Below the pieces are notes generated by a model that did no database searches, was not told where the DNA came from, and saw only the letters and a list, made by a program, of their open reading frames with translations. Below, in pieces: positions 1 to 8,543 of a stretch of 64,000 bases of DNA. Positions within the stretch are counted from its first letter, which is position 1; every line of letters starts with the position of its first letter. The DNA comes from an uncultured Gemmatimonadales bacterium (GTDB lineage Bacteria; Gemmatimonadota; Gemmatimonadetes; Gemmatimonadales; Gemmatimonadaceae): contig CAWKNZ010000008.1 in assembly GCA_963851265.1 (NCBI GenBank), positions 224,001 to 288,000 on the forward strand, written 5' to 3'. The position numbers and the translations under genes were made by a program.

Positions 1-1
1 G

Positions 2-280
2 CGCGCCCGCGTCGTCGCCGCCCTCGGCAACGGCCAGATCGACGCGCTCCGGGCGTCGCTCGAGGCGCTCGCCGCCGCGCGCGACCTGCGGCTCGACGGG
101 ACGTGGGCGCCCGAGCCGTCGTTCGTGCTGCACCGCGGCGGGCATGCGGTGCACGACGCCGACCGGCGCGCCACGGCCGCGTGGGCGGCGACGCGGCGCG
201 AGTTCGTCGACTACACCGTCGGGCCGCTCGCGCGCGGCGACGGGCGGGTCGCGGTGGGCGCGGACGGGGGGGACGCCTAA
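2..280 (+). CDS. 3' end of a small hypothetical protein, truncated by the window edge; weak resemblance to YggL/DUF469
   Basis: Frame 2 is open with GC-rich third positions up to TAA at 278-280; it reads ...HAVHDADRRATAAWAATRREFVDYTVGPL... Confidence 0.45.
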   Translation, partial: RARVVAALGNGQIDALRASLEALAAARDLRLDGTWAPEPSFVLHRGGHAVHDADRRATAAWAATRREFVDYTVGPLARGDGRVAVGADGGDA

Positions 281-289
281 CGCCCCGGG

Positions 290-640
290 TCAGGGGATGA
301 GGTGCATCAGCGCGCCCGCCGCGGTCGCGATCGCCGTGGCCGCGCCCGCGGCGCTGGTGATTCCGGTCAGGAGTCCACGCAGCGTCGGGCCGTCCGGCTT
401 CTCGGCGGCGGCCTCGCGCGTCACCGCGGCGGCGCGCTCGCGCACCGCCGCCTCGTCGGCGGACGCCGGGCCGTAGCGCGCCACCGCGTCCTCGAGGTCG
501 CGCACCCGCCGCGCCAGCTCGCCCGGATCGGCCGCCGGGCCCCCGCTCGACAGGCGCACGCCCGAGACGCGCTCGGCGATGACCTGGTTGGTCGCGGACA
601 CGGTGCTGCCCGAGATGTGGACGCCGCCGGACGAGGACAT
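290..640 (-). CDS. Small hypothetical protein: N-terminal beta/amyloid-like motif followed by a helical domain with a hydrophobic C-terminal helix
   Basis: 116-aa ORF with GGAG RBS before the ATG; directly downstream of the 669..2216 gene. Confidence 0.75.
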   Translation of the reverse strand: MSSSGGVHISGSTVSATNQVIAERVSGVRLSSGGPAADPGELARRVRDLEDAVARYGPASADEAAVRERAAAVTREAAAEKPDGPTLRGLLTGITSAAGAATAIATAAGALMHLIP

Positions 641-668
641 GGAAGCTCCGATGTGTTAGGCGGACGCC

Positions 669-2216
669 TTATGCGGCCGCGGTGGTGACCGACTGCGCCG
701 CCGTCTTGACGGACTGCGCGGCGGTCTTGACGCTGTTCATCGTGGCCGTCGCGCGGCCCCCCAGGACGACGTTGTCGCCCTCGATCTTGCTCTGCGAGAC
801 GATGACGCCCGTGTTGAGGATCGTGTCGCGGCGCCCGATCAGCTCCGCCGTGTCGATGTCCTTCGCGTCGAGGAAGTCGGTGACGGCCTCGAGGATCTGA
901 CGCTCGAGCAGCTTCGCGTGCATCTCCTGGTCGACGCGCTGGAAGTAGCGCCGGTAGTCCGCCGACGCCGCGGTTTCGCGCACCGACTTTCCGGCCCCGT
1001 AGTCGTACTCCAGGTTGTCGTCGATGCGCCGCCGGCGCTCGCGCTCCGCCGTGCGGCGGCCTAGCCGCTCCTGCAGCGCCGCGGTGGCGCGGAGGTACGC
1101 CGCGGCGGCCGAGAACGGCGCGAGCACGACCGCGACGATGCCGAGTCCGAACATCTCGCCGACGCGAGCGTCCTTCCGCAGCGCGTCGACCTTGTGGTAC
1201 GACTCGTGGATGGGCGGCAGCAGGTACTTGTTAACCTCGACGAACAGATTCGAGCCCTGGCGCACGCAGCGCAGGAACATCGTCACGACCAGCTCGCCGT
1301 CCCAGCTCGTGCTCTGCACGCACCGGTACGCGCGGATGCGCGGGTCGGCCCGCTCGGTGAGCGCGTGCACCTGCTCGGCGGGGATGCTCACCGAGGGCGC
1401 GGCGTACGGCGACGGCAGCAGCTGACGGTCGTCTCGGACGTCGCGCCCGTTGACGTACGCGACGGGGTCGAACGTGACGTGCGGCAGCCCCAGCCCCACG
1501 AGCGACTGCTCGACGCAGTCGTAGAGTTCGTGCACCGCGAACGGGCGGGGCGAGCAGCAGCCGTCGAGCATGCGCTTGCCCTTGGTGACGTTGAGGGCGA
1601 ACGACCAGCGCTCGACGAGGACCCCCGCGCCGACGAACGGCGTGAAGCCGCTGTAGACCACGAGATTCTGGCGCGCCTGCTCGCCGCACCGGGCGATGAG
1701 GGGCGCGTACTGCGCGGACGCCGGGGGGAGTGGCGCGCCGGCGAACGCGCGGCGCGACAGCCCCGACGCGATCGCGCCGAAGCGCGGGCTGTAGTCGCGG
1801 GCGAAGACGATCGCCGCCAGCACGGCCCACGCGGTGACGAGGGCGGGCACCACGTTCTGCGCCCCGATGAGCACTTCCGTCGCGAGCACCACCGCCGCGC
1901 CGCCGATGGACGCGAGGATGAGCCAGAGCGCGAACGACCGGTCCCGCCGGTCGGCCGCCGCGCAATGCGCCGCGACGGTTTGCAGGTCCACGCCGTACTC
2001 GGGCGCGGTGGCCGCGTGCTCGCGCCGGCGCACACGGTCGAGCACGTCGCGGCGGAACGCCGCGTTGGTGTACGCCGCGATCGCGAGCAGTCGCGTCGCC
2101 TCGCTCCCCGCACGCGGCGCGGCCGGAGCGGGCGGCGCGGCGGTCCCGGGTGCGGGCGCACCGCTCGCGCGCGGCGTGTAGGTGAACACGTCGTCGGACT
2201 GCGTGGGCATCGGCAT
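669..2216 (-). CDS. Hypothetical integral membrane protein (about 515 aa, 3 or more predicted TM segments) with a C-terminal beta-rich motif
   Basis: C-terminal part of ORF 669..4184 from MPMPTQ, preceded by GAGGTGGAG RBS; hydrophobic segments FALWLILASIGG..., VVPALVTAWAVL..., MFGLGIVAVVLAPF. Confidence 0.75.
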   Translation of the reverse strand: MPMPTQSDDVFTYTPRASGAPAPGTAAPPAPAAPRAGSEATRLLAIAAYTNAAFRRDVLDRVRRREHAATAPEYGVDLQTVAAHCAAADRRDRSFALWLILASIGGAAVVLATEVLIGAQNVVPALVTAWAVLAAIVFARDYSPRFGAIASGLSRRAFAGAPLPPASAQYAPLIARCGEQARQNLVVYSGFTPFVGAGVLVERWSFALNVTKGKRMLDGCCSPRPFAVHELYDCVEQSLVGLGLPHVTFDPVAYVNGRDVRDDRQLLPSPYAAPSVSIPAEQVHALTERADPRIRAYRCVQSTSWDGELVVTMFLRCVRQGSNLFVEVNKYLLPPIHESYHKVDALRKDARVGEMFGLGIVAVVLAPFSAAAAYLRATAALQERLGRRTAERERRRRIDDNLEYDYGAGKSVRETAASADYRRYFQRVDQEMHAKLLERQILEAVTDFLDAKDIDTAELIGRRDTILNTGVIVSQSKIEGDNVVLGGRATATMNSVKTAAQSVKTAAQSVTTAAA

Positions 2217-2518
2217 ACGGAACTCCACCTCGCGGCACGTGGATGCGCCGACGGTTGCCCGGCACTGGTCGCGTGCCGGGTTCCGGGGGCGGGGCGGGCA
2301 CGGCCAGACTCGCGACCGGCGCCGCCCCGCAGGCGCAGCGCCACTGTTGCAACCGATCGGAAATCGCGCCAGACCTCGGGGCCCGTGCGCGCAAGTCGCA
2401 AACGGCGATTTATGTCCGCGCCACGACGCTGCTACGTGATATTGCGCACAGTCGCGTGGCGCGAGCCGCCGTGCGGAGCCGGGCCCGGCGGCACGCGCGC
2501 GGCGAGCCCCGCCGTGCC

Positions 2519-5500
2519 TTACGCGGGCTCGGCGCGCACCGCGGCGGCGATCGCCGGCACCGCGGGGCGGGCGGGCCTCGCCTCCGTACCGCCGCCCGTC
2601 TCGGGCGCGGCGCCCGCGCCCGGCCGCTGCCCCGCCCCGCCCCGGTCGTGCCGCCGCTCCGCCCACCCGATCACGGCGCGGTACAGCACCGGCAGCAGGA
2701 ACAGCGTCAGCGCCGTGCTCGTCAGCAGCCCGCCGATCACGACCGTCGCGAGCGGCCGCTGCACCTCGCTCCCGGGCGTCGACGAGATCGCCATCGGCAC
2801 GAAGCCGAGGCTCGCCACGAGCGCCGTCATCAGCACCGGTCGCACGCGATCGCTCGCGCCCATCCGCACCGCCTCGTCGACGTCGTGCCCCGGCTCGCCG
2901 TCCAGCCCCTGCCGCAGTGCGTTCACGTGCGACACGAGGACGACGCCGTTGAGCACCGCGATCCCGAACAGCGCGATGAATCCGACGCTCGCCGAGAGCG
3001 ACAGGTTGAGGTGGCGCAACCACAGCGCCGCGACGCCGCCGACGAGCGCGAACGGAACGTTGGTCAGCACGAGCGCCGTCTGCAGCACCGAGCGGAACGA
3101 GGCGTAGAGCAGCAGCACGATCAGCCCGAGCGCGAGCGGCACCACGACCCGCAGCCGCTGCATCGCGCGCTGCTGGTTCTCGTACTGCCCGCCCCACTCC
3201 AGGAAGGTGCCCGACGGGATCGGCACCTCGCGCGCCACGCGCGCGCGCACCTCCGTGACGAAGCTGCCCAGGTCGCGCCCGCGCACGTTCGCCATCGCCA
3301 GCGTGCGGCGCTGCGCGTCCTCGTGGCTGATCTGCTCGGGGCCGGTCTGCGGCACGACGTCCGCCACCGCCGAGAGCGGCACCACCGCGCCCGTGGTCGG
3401 GCTGCGGAGCAGGAGGTTGGCGAGCGCGCCCGGGTCCTGCTGCTGCGCCGCCGGGTACCGGACGGCCACGCCGATCCGCCGCGGCCCGTCGACCATCTCG
3501 GTCGCGACGTCGCCGCCTAACGCCATGTTCACCGCGTCGCGCACGTCGGCCACCGACAGGCCGTAGCGCGCGAGGTCGGCGCGCCGCACCGAGACCTGGA
3601 GCTGCCCCGTCCCCTCGCTCACCTCGACCGACACGTCGGCCGAGCCGGGCACGGTGCCGAGCACCCCCCGGATGCGGTTGGCGATCTGCTCGTTCCGCTC
3701 CAGACTGGGGCCCACCACCTTCACCCCGAGGTCCGTGCGGATCCCGCTCTCCGCCTCGTCGAGCCGCATCGCGAGCGGCTGCGTGAAGCTCACCCACAGC
3801 CCCGGCACGCTCTTCAGCGCCGAGTCGAACGCGGCGATCATCCCCTCGGGGTCCTTCGCCGTCTTCCACTCGCCGCGGTCCCGGAGCGTCACGTACTGGT
3901 CGCCCTCGTAGAGTCCCATCGCCTCGGTCGCGAGGTCCGGACGCCCTTCCTTCGTGACGACCGAGAGCACCTCCGGAAAGCGCCGCACGATCCGCTCCGA
4001 CTCGAGCGAGAGCTTGGTCGCGTCGGCGAGCGACACGCTCGGCAGACGCCGGGTGTTGATGAGGATCGCCCCCTCGTCGAGCTTCGGCATGAACTCGGTG
4101 CCGATCCGCGTCAGCGACCACGCGGCGCTCACCGCGAGCAGGACCGCGACCGCGGTGATCACCTTCCCGTGCCGGATGCTCCACTCCAGCGCGCCCGCGT
4201 AGCGGTCGCGCAGGCGCGATTCGAGGCCGGAGGCGCCGCTCTTCCCCACGGCGCCGTCCTTTTCGCGCGCGCCGGAATCGCCCGCCTTCTCCTTCGGCGC
4301 CTTCAGCAGCGCCGCCGAGATGGTCGGCACGTACGTGAGGGCGAGCAGCAGCGAGCCGAGCACGGCACAGACGACCGTGAAGGCCATCGGTTTGAACATC
4401 CGCCCTTCCATCCCCTCGAGCGTGAAGATGGGGATGTACACGGCGACGATGATCGCGATGCCGAAGAGCACCGGCCGCCCGACCTCGACGGCCGCGTCGC
4501 GGAAGAACGCCGCGCGCGCGTCCGCGTCGTTCGCGTCCGGCGGGGCCTTCTCCATCCGGTGCACGAAGTTCTCGACCATCACGATCGCGCCGTCGACGAT
4601 CAGCCCGAAGTCGAGCGCGCCGAGCGACATCAGGTTGGCCGAGTAGCCGAACAGGTACATCCCGCCGAACGCGATGAGCATCGAGAGCGGGATCACGCTC
4701 GCCACGATGAGCGACGCGCGCACGTTGCGCAGGAACAGGAAGAGCACCGCGATGACGAGAATCCCGCCCTCGAGCAGATTCTTCGTGATCGTGTGCGTGG
4801 TGCGCCCCACCAGCTCGGTCTGGTCGTAGAACGGTACGATGTGCACGTGCTTCGGCAGCGCCGAGCGGATCTCGTCCATGCGCGCCTTCACCGCGTCGAT
4901 CACCCGGCGGCTGTCGGCGCCCTGGAGCTTGAGCACCATGCCCGTCACGACCTCGCCCTTGCCGTTCTGCGTGACCGCGCCGTAGCGCGGCATCCCGCCG
5001 TCCTGCACCGTCGCCACGTCGGCCACGGTCACGGGGGTACCCCCCGGATTCGCGATCACCACCTGCCCGATCTGGGCCGCCGACGTCAGCCGCCCCACGC
5101 CCCGTACGGTGTAGCGGGTTCCGGCGCGCTCCAGGTACGGCCCGCCGAACGACAGGTTGTTGTCCGCGAGCGCCTTACTCACGTCTCCCATCGTCAACCC
5201 GCGCGCGACGAGCCGCGCGGGGTCGACCTCGACGTGCATCTGTTCGATCAGCCCGCCCCACGAGTTCACGTCGCTCACGCCCGGCACCGTGCGCAGCCGG
5301 GGGCGGATCGTGTAGTCGTGGAGCGCCTTGAGTTGGATGAGCGACATCGAGTCGCTCGTCACCGTGTACTGGAACAGCTCGCCCATCGGCGTCGACAGCG
5401 GCCCCATCGTGGCCTCGACCCCCGCGGGCAGCGCGTTCTTCGCCTGCGCCAACCGCTGTTCCACCAGCGTGCGCGCGAAGTACACGTCCGTCCCGTCGGG

Positions 5501-5788
5501 GAACGGCACGGTGATGATCGTCAACCCCGTCTTGGACGTCGACCGGACCCCGGTCACGCCGGGGAGTCCCATCAGCGCCGACTCGAGCGGGTACGTCACG
5601 AGCTGCTCGACCTCCTCGGGGGCGAGCCCGGGCGCGGTGGCCGACACGTCGACGCGCACCCCCGTGAGGTCGGGGTACGCGTCGAACGGGATGCGCAGGA
5701 GCGCGAACAGGCCGAAGGCGACGACCGCGAGCAGCCCGCCGACCGTCACGATCCGATTCTTCAGGACGAACCCGATCAGCTTGCGCAT
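2519..5788 (-). CDS. czcA: CzcA/CusA-family heavy-metal efflux RND transporter
   Basis: 1089 aa; PFDAYPD, SLGALDFGLIVDG, GFIALFGIAVLNG and RPVLMTA motifs. Confidence 0.93.
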   Translation of the reverse strand: MRKLIGFVLKNRIVTVGGLLAVVAFGLFALLRIPFDAYPDLTGVRVDVSATAPGLAPEEVEQLVTYPLESALMGLPGVTGVRSTSKTGLTIITVPFPDGTDVYFARTLVEQRLAQAKNALPAGVEATMGPLSTPMGELFQYTVTSDSMSLIQLKALHDYTIRPRLRTVPGVSDVNSWGGLIEQMHVEVDPARLVARGLTMGDVSKALADNNLSFGGPYLERAGTRYTVRGVGRLTSAAQIGQVVIANPGGTPVTVADVATVQDGGMPRYGAVTQNGKGEVVTGMVLKLQGADSRRVIDAVKARMDEIRSALPKHVHIVPFYDQTELVGRTTHTITKNLLEGGILVIAVLFLFLRNVRASLIVASVIPLSMLIAFGGMYLFGYSANLMSLGALDFGLIVDGAIVMVENFVHRMEKAPPDANDADARAAFFRDAAVEVGRPVLFGIAIIVAVYIPIFTLEGMEGRMFKPMAFTVVCAVLGSLLLALTYVPTISAALLKAPKEKAGDSGAREKDGAVGKSGASGLESRLRDRYAGALEWSIRHGKVITAVAVLLAVSAAWSLTRIGTEFMPKLDEGAILINTRRLPSVSLADATKLSLESERIVRRFPEVLSVVTKEGRPDLATEAMGLYEGDQYVTLRDRGEWKTAKDPEGMIAAFDSALKSVPGLWVSFTQPLAMRLDEAESGIRTDLGVKVVGPSLERNEQIANRIRGVLGTVPGSADVSVEVSEGTGQLQVSVRRADLARYGLSVADVRDAVNMALGGDVATEMVDGPRRIGVAVRYPAAQQQDPGALANLLLRSPTTGAVVPLSAVADVVPQTGPEQISHEDAQRRTLAMANVRGRDLGSFVTEVRARVAREVPIPSGTFLEWGGQYENQQRAMQRLRVVVPLALGLIVLLLYASFRSVLQTALVLTNVPFALVGGVAALWLRHLNLSLSASVGFIALFGIAVLNGVVLVSHVNALRQGLDGEPGHDVDEAVRMGASDRVRPVLMTALVASLGFVPMAISSTPGSEVQRPLATVVIGGLLTSTALTLFLLPVLYRAVIGWAERRHDRGGAGQRPGAGAAPETGGGTEARPARPAVPAIAAAVRAEPA

Positions 5789-7155
5789 CAGCCGCCTCCC
5801 TCCCCGCCGCCCCCGCCGCTGCGCTGGTCGCGCCGGCGCTGGATTTCGGCCTTCGCGATTCCCGCCCCTTCCGTCACGACTGCGGCGCCCGGCGCGAGCC
5901 CGGCGACGATCTCGGCCAACCCCTGCGCACGCCGTCCCGCGCGCACGGGGAGGGCCTGCAACACCACCCCGCCGGCGTTGCCCGGCCCCGGCCGCTGGGT
6001 GACGACCACCGTATCGCCCTGGAATTCCTGCACCGCCGCGTCCGAGACGGCGAGCACCGATGCCCCGGCCGTCCCGAGCAACTCCGCCGCCGCGGTCATC
6101 TCCGCCTTCAACTCGCCGCGCGCGTTCGGCACGGTCGCCAGCACCTCCGCCGTGCGCGACGCCGAGTCGAGCGCCGGCGCCACGCGCACCACGCGCGCCG
6201 TGAAGGCGCGGTTCGGGTAGGCCGGCACGGTGAACCGCACCGTCGCGCCCACCCGCGCCGCGCCGAGCGCCTGCTCGGGGAGCCGCATCATGAGCCCGAG
6301 CGTGCCGAGCCGCCCGACCGTGACGAGCGGCGCGCCGACCGCCACGACGCTGCCCGGCTGCGCGTCGCGGGTCGTCACCACGCCGTCGTACGGCGCGCGC
6401 ACGAGCACCTCGTGCTCGTCGACGCCAGCCGGGATGGGCCCGCGGCCGACCAGGTGCGCCACGTACTCATTCGCGTACGACAGCTCTGCGTCCGCGCGCG
6501 CCGACGACGCGCGCGCGTCGGACTGCGCGTTGCGCGCGCGCTCGAGATCGGCGAGCGCACCCGCTTTCGCCGCGTACAACCGCTCGGCGCGCGCCGTGGC
6601 CGATTGCGCGTAGCGCAGGTCGCTCGCCGCCTGCGCCTTGGTGGCCTGCGCCTGTGCCAGCCGGTTCCGCGCGTCGAGCATCTCGTCGCTGTGCAGGATG
6701 ACGAGCACCTGGTCGCGCCGCACGCGGTCGCCCGGCTGCGCGAGCACGCGCACGACGCGCCCCTCCACGATGCTGCCCAACGGCTGCGTGGTGGTCGGGT
6801 CGAGCACGAGGCGCGCGGGAGCCGCCCACACGGCGCGCCACGGCACGAGGCGGGCGGTGTCGGTCTTGAACCCGGCCACGCGCGCGGCCTCGGCGGTGAG
6901 GAGCGCGGTGTCGGGCACGTTCGCGGCGGACGCGGGCGCCCCGGCGCCCTTCCCCGTGCCCTTCGCGTCGCCCTTCGCGTCGCCCTTCGCCGCGCCCTTC
7001 GCATCGCCGCCCTTGTCGGCCCCCTTGTCCGCGGCGTTCGTGCCGCCGGCGGACTTGGCCTCGCCCTTTCCGCACGCGGCGGCACACGCGAACGCCAGGA
7101 CGGCGCCGCGCCGCGCGTGCAGCGCGGCCGCGCGGAGGAATCGTGTCAGCATCAT
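5788..7155 (-). CDS. czcB: RND efflux periplasmic adaptor (CzcB/CusB-like), probable lipoprotein
   Basis: AAAC lipobox-like site; EGRVVRVLAQPGDRV and RAPYDGVV motifs; ATGA overlap with the upstream TolC-family gene. Confidence 0.88.
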   Translation of the reverse strand: MMLTRFLRAAALHARRGAVLAFACAAACGKGEAKSAGGTNAADKGADKGGDAKGAAKGDAKGDAKGTGKGAGAPASAANVPDTALLTAEAARVAGFKTDTARLVPWRAVWAAPARLVLDPTTTQPLGSIVEGRVVRVLAQPGDRVRRDQVLVILHSDEMLDARNRLAQAQATKAQAASDLRYAQSATARAERLYAAKAGALADLERARNAQSDARASSARADAELSYANEYVAHLVGRGPIPAGVDEHEVLVRAPYDGVVTTRDAQPGSVVAVGAPLVTVGRLGTLGLMMRLPEQALGAARVGATVRFTVPAYPNRAFTARVVRVAPALDSASRTAEVLATVPNARGELKAEMTAAAELLGTAGASVLAVSDAAVQEFQGDTVVVTQRPGPGNAGGVVLQALPVRAGRRAQGLAEIVAGLAPGAAVVTEGAGIAKAEIQRRRDQRSGGGGGEGGG

Positions 7156-8543
7156 TTCGTCAGCGTCGTAGCGGGGGCGGCCGGGGCGCCGGTCGCGCGC
7201 TCCAAATCCAGGCGGGCGAGGCGCAAGTCCGCGGCCCACCGCAGCGCAGCGGCGCGCACGTCGCCGCGCGACCGCACGGCGTCGAGCAGTTCGAGCAGCG
7301 TGGCGGCCCCCTCGCGGTACGCCACCTCGGTCACCGCGGCCACGTCGCGCCCGCGCGCGTCGAGCGACGCCGCGTTCAGCGCGCCCCCACCGGACGTCGC
7401 CGCGCCCCCGCTCTCAGCCAGAAGCGTCGCGTACGCGCGCACCCCGGCCTCGACCTCGGCGGTCACCTGGGCCTCCGCGGCGCGCAGGTCGTTCTCGGCG
7501 GCCACGAGATCGCCCGCGGCGCGCGCCCGCCCACCCTGGTTGCGGTCGAACAACGGCACCGAGACGTACACGCCGACGAGGCCGGTGTTCGCAGCGGCGG
7601 TGCGCTTGTACCCCGCAACCCCGCCCACGCCGGGGCGCCCGCCGAGCCGCTCGACGCCCGCGCGACGCTGCGCTTCGACGAGGCGCGCGCGGGCCGCGAC
7701 GACCTCGGGGCGTTGGCGGAGCGCGGCCTCGACGAGCGCGCGCGCGTCCGGCTCGGGCTGGTACTCGGCGGCAGCACCGGCACCGCCGCCGACGGCGGTG
7801 CCCGCGTAGGCGACCGTGCGCACCGCGGGCGCGCCGCCCGGCACGTCCACCGGGTCGGTGGGCCACGGTACCCGGTCGAGCGGGAGGGCGAGCGCGCGCG
7901 CGAGGTCGCCACGCGCGCGCTCTGCGTCGGCGCGCGCCGTGGCCGCGACGAGCCGCAGACGCGCGGCTTCGAGCTGCGTGCGCATCGCCGCGCCTTCCGC
8001 GATCGCGCCCTCGCGCGCGCGCCGCACCTGCACGGTACTGAGGCTGTCGAAGGCCTGTCGCTGCGCGTCGGCCACGCCGCGGAGGGCGACCGCGAGGGCC
8101 GCGCGCCAGTACGCGCGCGCCACGTCGTACTCGACCGTGCGCGCCGTCGTGGTCGAGTCGGCCGCGGCGCGCGCGGCGACCGCGCCGACGAGCCCGCGCA
8201 GCGCGTACCGGCGCCCGTACGCATCCACGCCGAGAGCCGCGGTGACGAACTCGTCGGGTGCGATGGGACCGCCGATGTTCTCGCGGCGGTACTCGAGCGT
8301 GGGGTTGAGGAAGGCCGCGTCCTGGCGCGCCTGGCCCACGGCCGACTGCCGGCGACCGCCCGCGGCCCGAAGCGCCGGATGCTCGCCGCGCGCCATGGCG
8401 AGCGCGTCGGCGAGCGAGAACCCGTCCTGCGCGACGGCGGGCCGGAGCGCGGCGGCGAGCAGCACGACGAGCAGGGCGGCACACGCGGCCGCCGACCGGC
8501 GAGGGGCGCGCGGTCGGAACGGGCGCAGACGAGGACTCCACAT
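7152..8543 (-). CDS. TolC/CzcC-family outer membrane efflux protein
   Basis: Signal peptide; VSVPLFDRNQG and AYREGAATLLELLDA motifs; operon position. Confidence 0.88.
   Translation of the reverse strand: MWSPRLRPFRPRAPRRSAAACAALLVVLLAAALRPAVAQDGFSLADALAMARGEHPALRAAGGRRQSAVGQARQDAAFLNPTLEYRRENIGGPIAPDEFVTAALGVDAYGRRYALRGLVGAVAARAAADSTTTARTVEYDVARAYWRAALAVALRGVADAQRQAFDSLSTVQVRRAREGAIAEGAAMRTQLEAARLRLVAATARADAERARGDLARALALPLDRVPWPTDPVDVPGGAPAVRTVAYAGTAVGGGAGAAAEYQPEPDARALVEAALRQRPEVVAARARLVEAQRRAGVERLGGRPGVGGVAGYKRTAAANTGLVGVYVSVPLFDRNQGGRARAAGDLVAAENDLRAAEAQVTAEVEAGVRAYATLLAESGGAATSGGGALNAASLDARGRDVAAVTEVAYREGAATLLELLDAVRSRGDVRAAALRWAADLRLARLDLERATGAPAAPATTLTK

Follow-up and report, generated by a model that had tools for sequence, protein, structure and literature searches.

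Amyloid signaling in bacteria has so far been described, in the accessible parts of the literature, for gene pairs that specify one Bell-domain protein and one NOD-like receptor (NLR) in filamentous bacteria and for one Escherichia coli system, Bab/Agp. The Bell/NLR pairs carry the bacterial amyloid signaling sequences BASS1-10, in which a motif of ~25 amino acids is common to the C terminus of one protein and the N terminus of another encoded by an adjacent, usually collinear and tightly spaced gene, as set out in the available portion of the report (Dyrka et al. 2020, bioRxiv 10.1101/2020.01.06.895854). Bab/Agp, from E. coli ECOR25, is presented in the available portion of its report as an abortive infection system with the BASS11 motif and a non-NLR sensor bearing an amyloid motif of ~20 residues (Ibarlosa et al. 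2024, bioRxiv 10.1101/2024.11.07.622273). A related organization was analyzed here in a 64,000-nucleotide stretch of DNA (the window) from an uncultured Gemmatimonadales bacterium (contig CAWKNZ010000008.1, positions 224,001 to 288,000). Two adjacent genes in the window encode a 515-residue membrane-anchored protein, P0001, and a 116-residue partner, P0002, whose facing termini bear related segments. Comparison across homologous loci indicates that the two proteins are very probably physically coupled through this motif. The chances are evenly balanced that the pair is a two-component, motif-coupled signaling module of the amyloid-signaling type that operates without an NLR.

The pair resembles the Bell/NLR systems in the length of the motif, its position on facing termini and the spacing of the genes. 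It differs from them in having no NB-ARC or NACHT domain and no Bell domain, in its constant component, a membrane protein with two transmembrane (TM) helices, and in placing the motif at the N terminus of the variable, effector-type protein. In Bell/HeLo-type effectors the membrane-targeting helix is N-terminal and the motif C-terminal, whereas P0002 has an N-terminal motif followed by a four-helix bundle. Unlike the BASS pairs, the pair described here is also found in phyla that lack a multicellular habit (Acidobacteriota, Pseudomonadota and Bacteroidota). Bab/Agp, as far as its available description goes, shares with the present pair the lack of an NLR, two adjacent gene products, a motif of ~20 residues, links to TIR- and effector-associated domain (EAD)-type proteins and a small helical partner. 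In contrast to Bab/Agp, the large protein here is membrane-anchored with the motif at its C terminus, and the small protein has an N-terminal motif and a DUF5955-like bundle. The fungal HET-S/NWD2 pairs, in the accessible descriptions, likewise consist of adjacent genes with paired motifs, a disordered prion-forming tail being joined to a helical bundle, and PNP_UDP and alpha/beta-hydrolase domains serve as alternative effectors. HET-S-type effectors carry two motif pseudo-repeats. The proteins described here have one motif copy each and no pseudo-repeats, there is no NLR, and the polarity is opposite to that of HET-S/NWD2 if the membrane protein is the receptor. Kaur, Burroughs, Iyer and Aravind have reportedly described EAD coupling in nucleoside triphosphate-dependent conflict systems, in which a constant core is combined with swappable effectors via a shared homotypic module. 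The present system also has a constant core and swappable effectors, and one of its partner types carries EAD11. However, EADs are folded alpha-helical domains of ~80 residues in systems centered on a nucleoside triphosphatase (NTPase), whereas the shared element here is a disordered Gly/Asn-rich peptide of ~25 residues and there is no NTPase.

The span flagged by the original prediction (290 to 2216) consists of two minus-strand open reading frames (ORFs), and the pair forms a unit of two genes. The ORFs and their translations place P0001 at 669..2216 (stop codon 669-671) and P0002 at 290..640 (stop codon 290-292). The 28-nt spacer between them (641..668) contains GGAG at 646-649 ahead of the P0002 ATG. 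No site resembling a promoter or terminator was detected in window positions 1-2700, and the P0001 and P0002 genes probably form one operon. The C-terminal motif of P0001, delimited by the family consensus, spans residues 466-493 (ILNTGVIVSQSKIEGDNVVLGGRATATM; 738..821, minus strand). It encloses residues 470-486 (GVIVSQSKIEGDNVVLG; 759-809), the segment named in the original prediction. The N-terminal motif of P0002 occupies residues 6-22 (GVHISGSTVSATNQVIA; 575..625, minus strand); it is degenerate and matches positions 5-19 of the motif profile with 8.1 bits. Both segments read exactly as first described and can be aligned without a gap, 6 of the 17 residues being identical.

P0001 relatives numbered 17 in a clustered protein database and 142 in a scan of one genome per species. 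Locus-level counts rest on the best 80 of these 142 relatives, with the remaining 62 outside the counts. By record title, the 80 loci span at least seven phyla. The hosts are Actinomycetota (the majority), Acidobacteriota, Cyanobacteria, Chloroflexota, Bacteroidota, Pseudomonadota and a Nitrospinales metagenome-assembled genome. Six of the 80 loci were set aside as the membrane ORF runs off the end (L043, L058 and L072) or the gene is broken or partial (L042, L053 and L055), which leaves 74 assessable loci. A motif-bearing neighbor gene was present in 71 of the 74, and the predicted conservation of adjacency was thus borne out. At 66 of the 74 loci, the next downstream gene, on the same strand (spacing -59 to +82 nt), opens with the motif; for this count the partner start at L025 was corrected, and L045 and L046 were left out as their best segments are not motif-to-motif. 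The partner lies upstream at four cyanobacterial loci, on the same strand at L019 and L022 and divergently at L046 and L052. These arrangements indicate that the pairing is independent of translational coupling or gene order. Upstream cyanobacterial partners were read at L115:1198-1587(-), L117:1180-1596(-), L118:1198-1587(-) and L022:636-1037(+). In a Caldilineaceae locus (L017:3090-7004), two paralogues of the membrane gene lie in tandem, both with the motif at the end, ahead of a single small gene that also bears it, and two hubs may share one partner there. No partner was found at L031, where the protein is truncated within the motif, at L045, where the motif is degenerate and only 317 nt lie downstream, or at L047.

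Co-variation was measured by scoring all membrane-protein C termini against all partner N termini, using one representative per cluster of the membrane-protein core. At 50% identity (28 clusters), true pairs had a mean score of 64.5 compared to 42.4 for non-partners (standard deviation 15.7), an observed value reached in 0 of 20,000 permutations, and the true partner ranked first in 10 of 28 rows and 13 of 28 columns. The result was the same at 40% identity (13 clusters; mean 65.1 versus 39.3; 0/20,000; true partner first in 7 of 13) and at 70% identity (40 clusters; 64.7 versus 43.5; 0/20,000; first in 9 of 40). The motifs therefore co-vary within pairs, as had been proposed. The similarity takes the form of identical residues at equivalent positions. 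Identity between partner motifs is 0.40 in register, falls to 0.04-0.13 at shifts of 1-4 residues and is 0.16 for the best reversed alignment. Excess within-pair identity is present in nine alignment columns. Both members of 8 pairs, drawn from 5 clades, have a one-residue insertion after the Gly-Gly turn; neither member departs from the standard length in 40 further pairs, and the two members differ in 15. Among the matched variants, Micromonospora and Streptomyces have GNQAVG in both partners, L034 and L048 have VASG in both partners, L078 has NAGAIH...GNQTN and L082 has GPVAGNDV.

The C-terminal consensus of the P0001 family covers ~25 residues, I-L-N-N-G-V-I-V-[ST]-G-G-x-[ILV]-x-A-x-[SN]-L-A-V-G-x-G-A, with one Asn and two Gly invariant in the family alignments. 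The N termini of P0002 relatives read N-E-G-I-V-V-S-G-G-x-I-x-A-x-x-x-A-V-G-R-G-A, which is the same motif. Gly (2.76-fold), Asn (3.56-fold) and Ile (2.22-fold) are enriched, Pro (0.14-fold) and Leu (0.35-fold) are depleted, and aromatic and acidic residues are also depleted; Lys is not depleted (0.94-fold) and Gln is only 1.32-fold enriched. This composition agrees with the initial description of the motif as amyloid-like and resembles the bias of BASS motifs, which are rich in Gly, Asn, Ile and Val and poor in Pro and Leu according to the accessible part of the survey (Dyrka et al. 2020, bioRxiv 10.1101/2020.01.06.895854). The AlphaFold2 models give a predicted local distance difference test score (pLDDT) <50 for P0001 residues 473-498 and P0002 residues 3-33, tails that are joined to confidently folded domains. 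Both motifs are thus predicted to be disordered. The motif is exclusive to the pair. Scans of five genomes (6.5-10.3 Mb) with the motif profile gave matches at E<1e-5 in the membrane protein and its partner alone, the next matches being at E>0.2, and no locus had a third match at E<=1e-3. In the genome of the window, the P0001 motif was recovered at E = 1e-4, this sequence itself being in the training set, and no further ORF scored below E 0.5. None of the Pfam amyloid-motif families (HET-s, RHIM, Ses_B and NACHT_sigma) matched the window proteins at E<=1, and none was among the best 25 of 31 and the best 25 of 58 families listed for two alignments.

P0002 relatives numbered 14 at E<=1e-3 among 1.84 billion representative proteins. 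Residues 39-114 of P0002 (299..526, minus strand) are modeled by AlphaFold2 as a DUF5955-like four-helix bundle with helices at 39-59, 63-77, 84-98 and 102-114 and a pLDDT of ~95. The match of P0002 to Pfam DUF5955 (PF19380), the one sequence family it hit, is weak (21.5 bits, E 3.2e-4) and falls below the curated cut-off of 27.1 bits. A DUF5955 match at E<=0.1 was found in 36 of 43 P0002 relatives (best E 2e-10); among 17 partners scanned, the L065 protein alone passed the cut-off (30 bits). Canonical Streptomyces DUF5955 proteins score 132-136 bits and are encoded at separate loci (L094 and L095). The L094 member has no motif, unlike P0002, and the motif-tagged partners may represent a diverged branch of the DUF5955 family. 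At L094:1483-1938(-), the one such locus read, the canonical gene lies in an unrelated neighborhood with a 268-residue ORF adjoining. A Foldseek search of the P0002 model against the PDB returned nothing at E<=0.001, with generic helical bundles as the only matches, and a fold assignment from solved structures was dropped. A second copy of the P0002 helical domain in its own genome, of the kind the EAD principle would call for, was sought and rejected; the best other match had E 0.02 and no DUF5955 protein scored above the cut-off. The original prediction also assigned P0002 a hydrophobic C-terminal helix that could act on membranes. The Ala/Gly/Thr-rich stretch is present, but it corresponds to two helices (3 and 4) of the modeled bundle. 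In P0002 relatives the stretch is amphipathic rather than TM-like, with a median best 19-residue hydropathy of 1.54 and a median of 3 charged residues, and a single TM helix is therefore unlikely. As speculation, the bundle could hold a buried hydrophobic hairpin that is freed on activation.

The domain that follows the motif varies among partners. The small helical domain is found at E<1e-3 in 56 of 67 matched pairs (the 66 loci plus the window), using a profile built partly from the same sequences. The L014 partner has a TIR domain (TIR_2, 31.6 bits; cut-off 28), and the L008 partner is TIR-like or nucleoside 2-deoxyribosyltransferase-like, with scores below the cut-offs. Partners at L078 and L082 match PNP_UDP_1 (E 2e-23 and 7e-25), and the L020 partner matches the alpha/beta-hydrolase family DUF7379 (E 9e-11). 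EAD11 is limited to the partners at L015 and L016 (E 5.5e-19). The L044 and L060 partners share a ~137-residue domain without an assigned family, and the L037 and L049 partners are short or truncated forms. PNP_UDP, alpha/beta-hydrolase and TIR domains are effectors beside fungal and bacterial amyloid motifs, as described in the available portion of the BASS report (Dyrka et al. 2020, bioRxiv 10.1101/2020.01.06.895854). The presence of TIR, PNP_UDP, alpha/beta-hydrolase and EAD11 partners at other loci fits the defense or cell-death module first suggested for the pair, and we slightly favor a role in defense or regulated cell death. The Phaeodactylibacter genome that contains L015 (read at L100-L109) has 11 EAD11 copies in varied architectures, including caspase-EAD11 and EAD11-TPR. 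This set is a large adaptor network into which a motif-EAD11 partner could plug.

P0001 belongs to an uncharacterized two-TM family that is the constant component of the pair. At E<=1 it had no family match in Pfam, NCBIfam or PADLOC. Its structure was modeled with AlphaFold2 from a 42-row alignment (mean pLDDT 86.8; predicted template modeling score 0.83), and the model has no convincing match among solved structures. The modeled order is N-terminal helices, a helical hairpin, an alpha+beta domain, a 49-residue helix, a helical C-terminal region and the low-confidence tail. The TM hairpin lies at about residues 95-150 (1767..1934, minus strand; model helices 78-116 and 119-152), and the best 19-residue hydropathy in the family is at least 1.6 in 37 of 41 members for TM1 and 41 of 42 for TM2. 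The alpha+beta domain at about residues 171-345 (1182..1706, minus strand) has a loop with near-invariant N184, Y188-S189-G190, P193-F194, G196 and G198, and is probably a sensing or regulatory core. The first half of the long helix at residues 352-400 (1017..1163, minus strand) is hydrophobic in P0001, but the helix is not conserved as a TM segment, with a hydropathy of at least 1.6 in 18 of 42 members and a minimum of 0.51. We infer that this helix is peripheral or amphipathic, in which case both P0001 termini would lie on the same, cytoplasmic side. A cytoplasmic location fits the FHA and zinc-ribbon additions at the N terminus of family members and the lack of signal peptides in the partners. 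These additions comprise an FHA domain with Yop-YscD_cpl (1 of 42 members) and a double zinc ribbon (5 of 42), and some members have a multi-TM N-terminal extension of ~270 residues. The added modules suggest regulated or sensory input at the N terminus. NB-ARC and NACHT domains had no Pfam, NCBIfam or PADLOC match in P0001 or P0002 and were absent from the best 25 of 31 families listed for 42 P0001-family members; the predicted lack of an NLR held in these scans.

A short, disordered Gly/Asn-rich peptide, facing termini, co-variation as identical in-register residues with matching motif length and a variable partner from the immune effector and adaptor set together make up an amyloid-signaling genomic signature. 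Signatures of this kind are how amyloid signaling motifs were discovered, according to the accessible part of the survey (Dyrka et al. 2020, bioRxiv 10.1101/2020.01.06.895854). A mechanism can be proposed in which the constant component is a cytoplasm-facing protein with a two-helix hairpin as its membrane anchor and a flexible, Gly/Asn/Ile-rich end of ~25 residues. A trigger sensed by the membrane protein would lead to clustering, and the clustered C-terminal peptides would adopt a stacked, parallel, in-register beta fold. This fold would recruit the partner and template its identical-register peptide, and the partner, concentrated and activated at the membrane, would then elicit a defense or cell-death response. 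The membrane protein is rather likely to act upstream in the signal. The broadest form of the proposal is a widespread NLR-less, prion-like immune class, in which a membrane-embedded sensor nucleates a new C-terminal amyloid motif and templates interchangeable, N-terminally tagged effectors, with the DUF5955-like bundle perhaps attacking membranes; this is tentative and on balance doubtful.

The nature of the coupling is a separate question from its existence, and templated cross-beta stacking has an even chance of being the form it takes rather than simple docking. A plain docking tag would be stoichiometric, a small beta-sheet or a single beta-helical turn that tethers the partner without templating, polymerization or amplification, much as an EAD adaptor does. 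Adjacency, co-variation, privacy of the motif and swappable partners fit such constitutive hetero-association equally well, the single motif copy on each side suits it, and one partner bears a true adaptor domain, EAD11. Complementary docking interfaces, however, usually co-vary through different residues, whereas the pairs here co-vary as identical in-register residues with shared one-residue insertions, which parallel in-register stacking predicts. The Gly/Asn-rich, Pro-poor composition also matches amyloid signaling motifs, and we consider docking alone somewhat unlikely. The direction of signaling could also be reversed, with the membrane protein as an executioner whose tail assembly damages the membrane and the tagged downstream protein as a trigger, an adaptor or an inhibitory cap. 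This would be the canonical polarity seen in Bell and HET-S, the effector bearing the C-terminal motif. Gene order and motif polarity would then match Bell/NLR and Bab/Agp, where the upstream effector has the C-terminal motif and the downstream protein the N-terminal one; P0001 is embedded in the membrane, and a motif-EAD11 partner could bridge to EAD11-bearing sensors such as the EAD11-TPR protein. But TIR, PNP_UDP and alpha/beta-hydrolase domains are typical outputs, not sensors, and the membrane protein is constant, large and highly conserved and gains FHA and double zinc-ribbon modules in a pattern typical of sensors, so that the reversed order appears unlikely. A very improbable alternative is that the similarity is kept at the DNA level, as a direct repeat or by gene conversion that eases cassette exchange, with no role in the protein. 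The motif-coding segments do lie ~150-200 bp apart in the same orientation at most loci, and the domains downstream of the motif have clearly been swapped among partners. Yet aligned motif codons are only 0.38-0.73 identical in nucleotides, and the same codon is used at only 434 of 813 identical residues, with fewer shared in low-GC genomes (2/13, 3/12 and 3/12). The low codon sharing, and pairing that persists where the partner is upstream or divergent, indicate that selection on the protein, not on the DNA, preserves the similarity.

Several results weigh against the signaling-module interpretation, beginning with the pair in the window itself, which did not behave as the matched pair first proposed. 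Between the C-terminal 70 residues of P0001 and the N-terminal 50 of P0002, the best ungapped segment (BLOSUM62) scores 31, a value reached by 173 of 3000 shuffles, and the window alone therefore does not exclude chance. The P0001 motif averages 34.2 against foreign partners, and the native pair, with its 31, falls short of that mean and ranks 18th of 28. The P0002 motif lacks two of the three family-invariant residues (Asn3 and Gly24 of the motif alignment), and this copy may therefore be weakened. Its 8.1 bits against the motif profile of its relatives correspond to a whole-sequence E of ~26 against the 51,016 six-frame ORFs of the genome, dozens of which match this score. These values, the Q-S in the P0001 motif where 22-24 of 26 representatives have G-G, and a P0001 gene absent from 60 of the 60 nearest related genomes searched, which points to sporadic acquisition, would suit a decaying relic in which the family feature is real, local coupling is lost and the resemblance is residual or due to chance. 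Against decay, both ORFs are intact and tightly spaced with a ribosome-binding site ahead, both folded domains model confidently, and the beta-strand positions are retained in the residual pattern G-V-x-[VI]-S ... [IV] ... A/G-x-N-x-V-[LI]. The same Q-S is present in P0006, the closest P0001 relative (46% identical), so the variant is inherited and not a recent lesion, and it may mark a diverged subtype. We regard a relic as quite unlikely, and the alignments confirm that the window motifs sit at positions orthologous to those of the conserved co-varying pair, a family feature that is real although the local copy is degenerate. The remaining adverse points concern the family and its setting. 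The permutation tests, with 0 of 20,000 at each threshold, ignore residual kinship among the cluster representatives. A conserved third gene was not found across the loci, and fused all-in-one forms were not found among proteins of 1144-3265 residues, a weak negative since only 8000 candidates were scored in the word-index searches; fusions of this kind would have favored a receptor-effector logic. No NTPase or other known oligomerizing switch is present. The EAD11 network has both sensor-like (TPR) and effector-like (caspase) members and does not fix the direction of signaling. No family among the PADLOC-DB 2.0 defense models matched P0001 or P0002 at E<=1, no recognizable defense island was seen around the pair, which instead adjoins putative resistance-nodulation-division (RND) efflux genes, and the pair was not found in a search of IMG/VR viral contigs.

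The surroundings of the pair were also examined. A convergent ORF downstream of the pair ends near window position 280. Upstream on the minus strand, at 2519-7239, are a 1089-residue ORF (2519-5788) and a 483-residue ORF that by eye resemble an RND heavy-metal/multidrug efflux pump and a membrane-fusion protein; nothing ties them to the P0001/P0002 pair. The GC content of the pair is not distinct from its surroundings, and two "plasmid" matches to the pair are replicons of 11.85 and 2.8 Mb. Across the family, C-terminal fusions were absent from 15 matches of 224-1143 residues and from 77 complete membrane ORFs. The only recurrent neighbor is a discoidin-type gene, which immediately precedes the membrane gene in 4 of the 34 representative loci (L003:3025-3981, L006:3125-3982, L018:3033-4025, and L050, grouped by BLAST only); it is absent from the window. 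The discoidin-type protein is membrane-anchored, with a Pro-rich linker and an F5/8 type C domain of the "NADase_transloc" type (E 4e-13 to 4e-15 in L003, L006 and L018), and could be an extracellular co-sensor in its subgroup. The Kribbella-type loci that were read (L037, L039:5831-6640, L040, L041 and L051) have a third gene in common after the pair. Its product has ~269-272 residues in L039, L040, L041 and L051; it starts with a zinc ribbon and has a single hydrophobic segment and a C-terminal domain containing Cys, and L037 has a 377-residue ORF with the same tail at this position.

The principle of amyloid signaling, including NLR-less forms, is already known. What appears new is the architecture, with a membrane-anchored constant component and the motif at the N terminus of the effector, together with the phyletic range and, as far as testable, the motif family. 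The literature yielded no account of the P0001 family, of what DUF5955 does (no paper was found to mention that family) or of any membrane protein as the constant amyloid-motif partner; pairs of a related kind could be listed in Table S2 of Dyrka et al. or in the extended data of Ibarlosa et al. The words "transmembrane" and "membrane protein" do not occur in the available portion of a 2026 review. The pair would thus represent a third, differently wired amyloid-signaling architecture with clear comparative support, whose partners include well-known immune enzymes. It provides a testable role for two families without an assigned function, the membrane family and the DUF5955-like proteins, and its natural matched and mismatched motif pairs can be used for work on specificity. 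If the motif is a docking tag only, the system would still be a new means of modular recruitment. If the membrane protein is a sensor, the pair would be a route that couples membrane events to TIR-type or nucleosidase-type effectors, and if an NLR-less membrane-sensor class does exist, it would extend amyloid signaling to membrane surveillance and to unicellular phyla.

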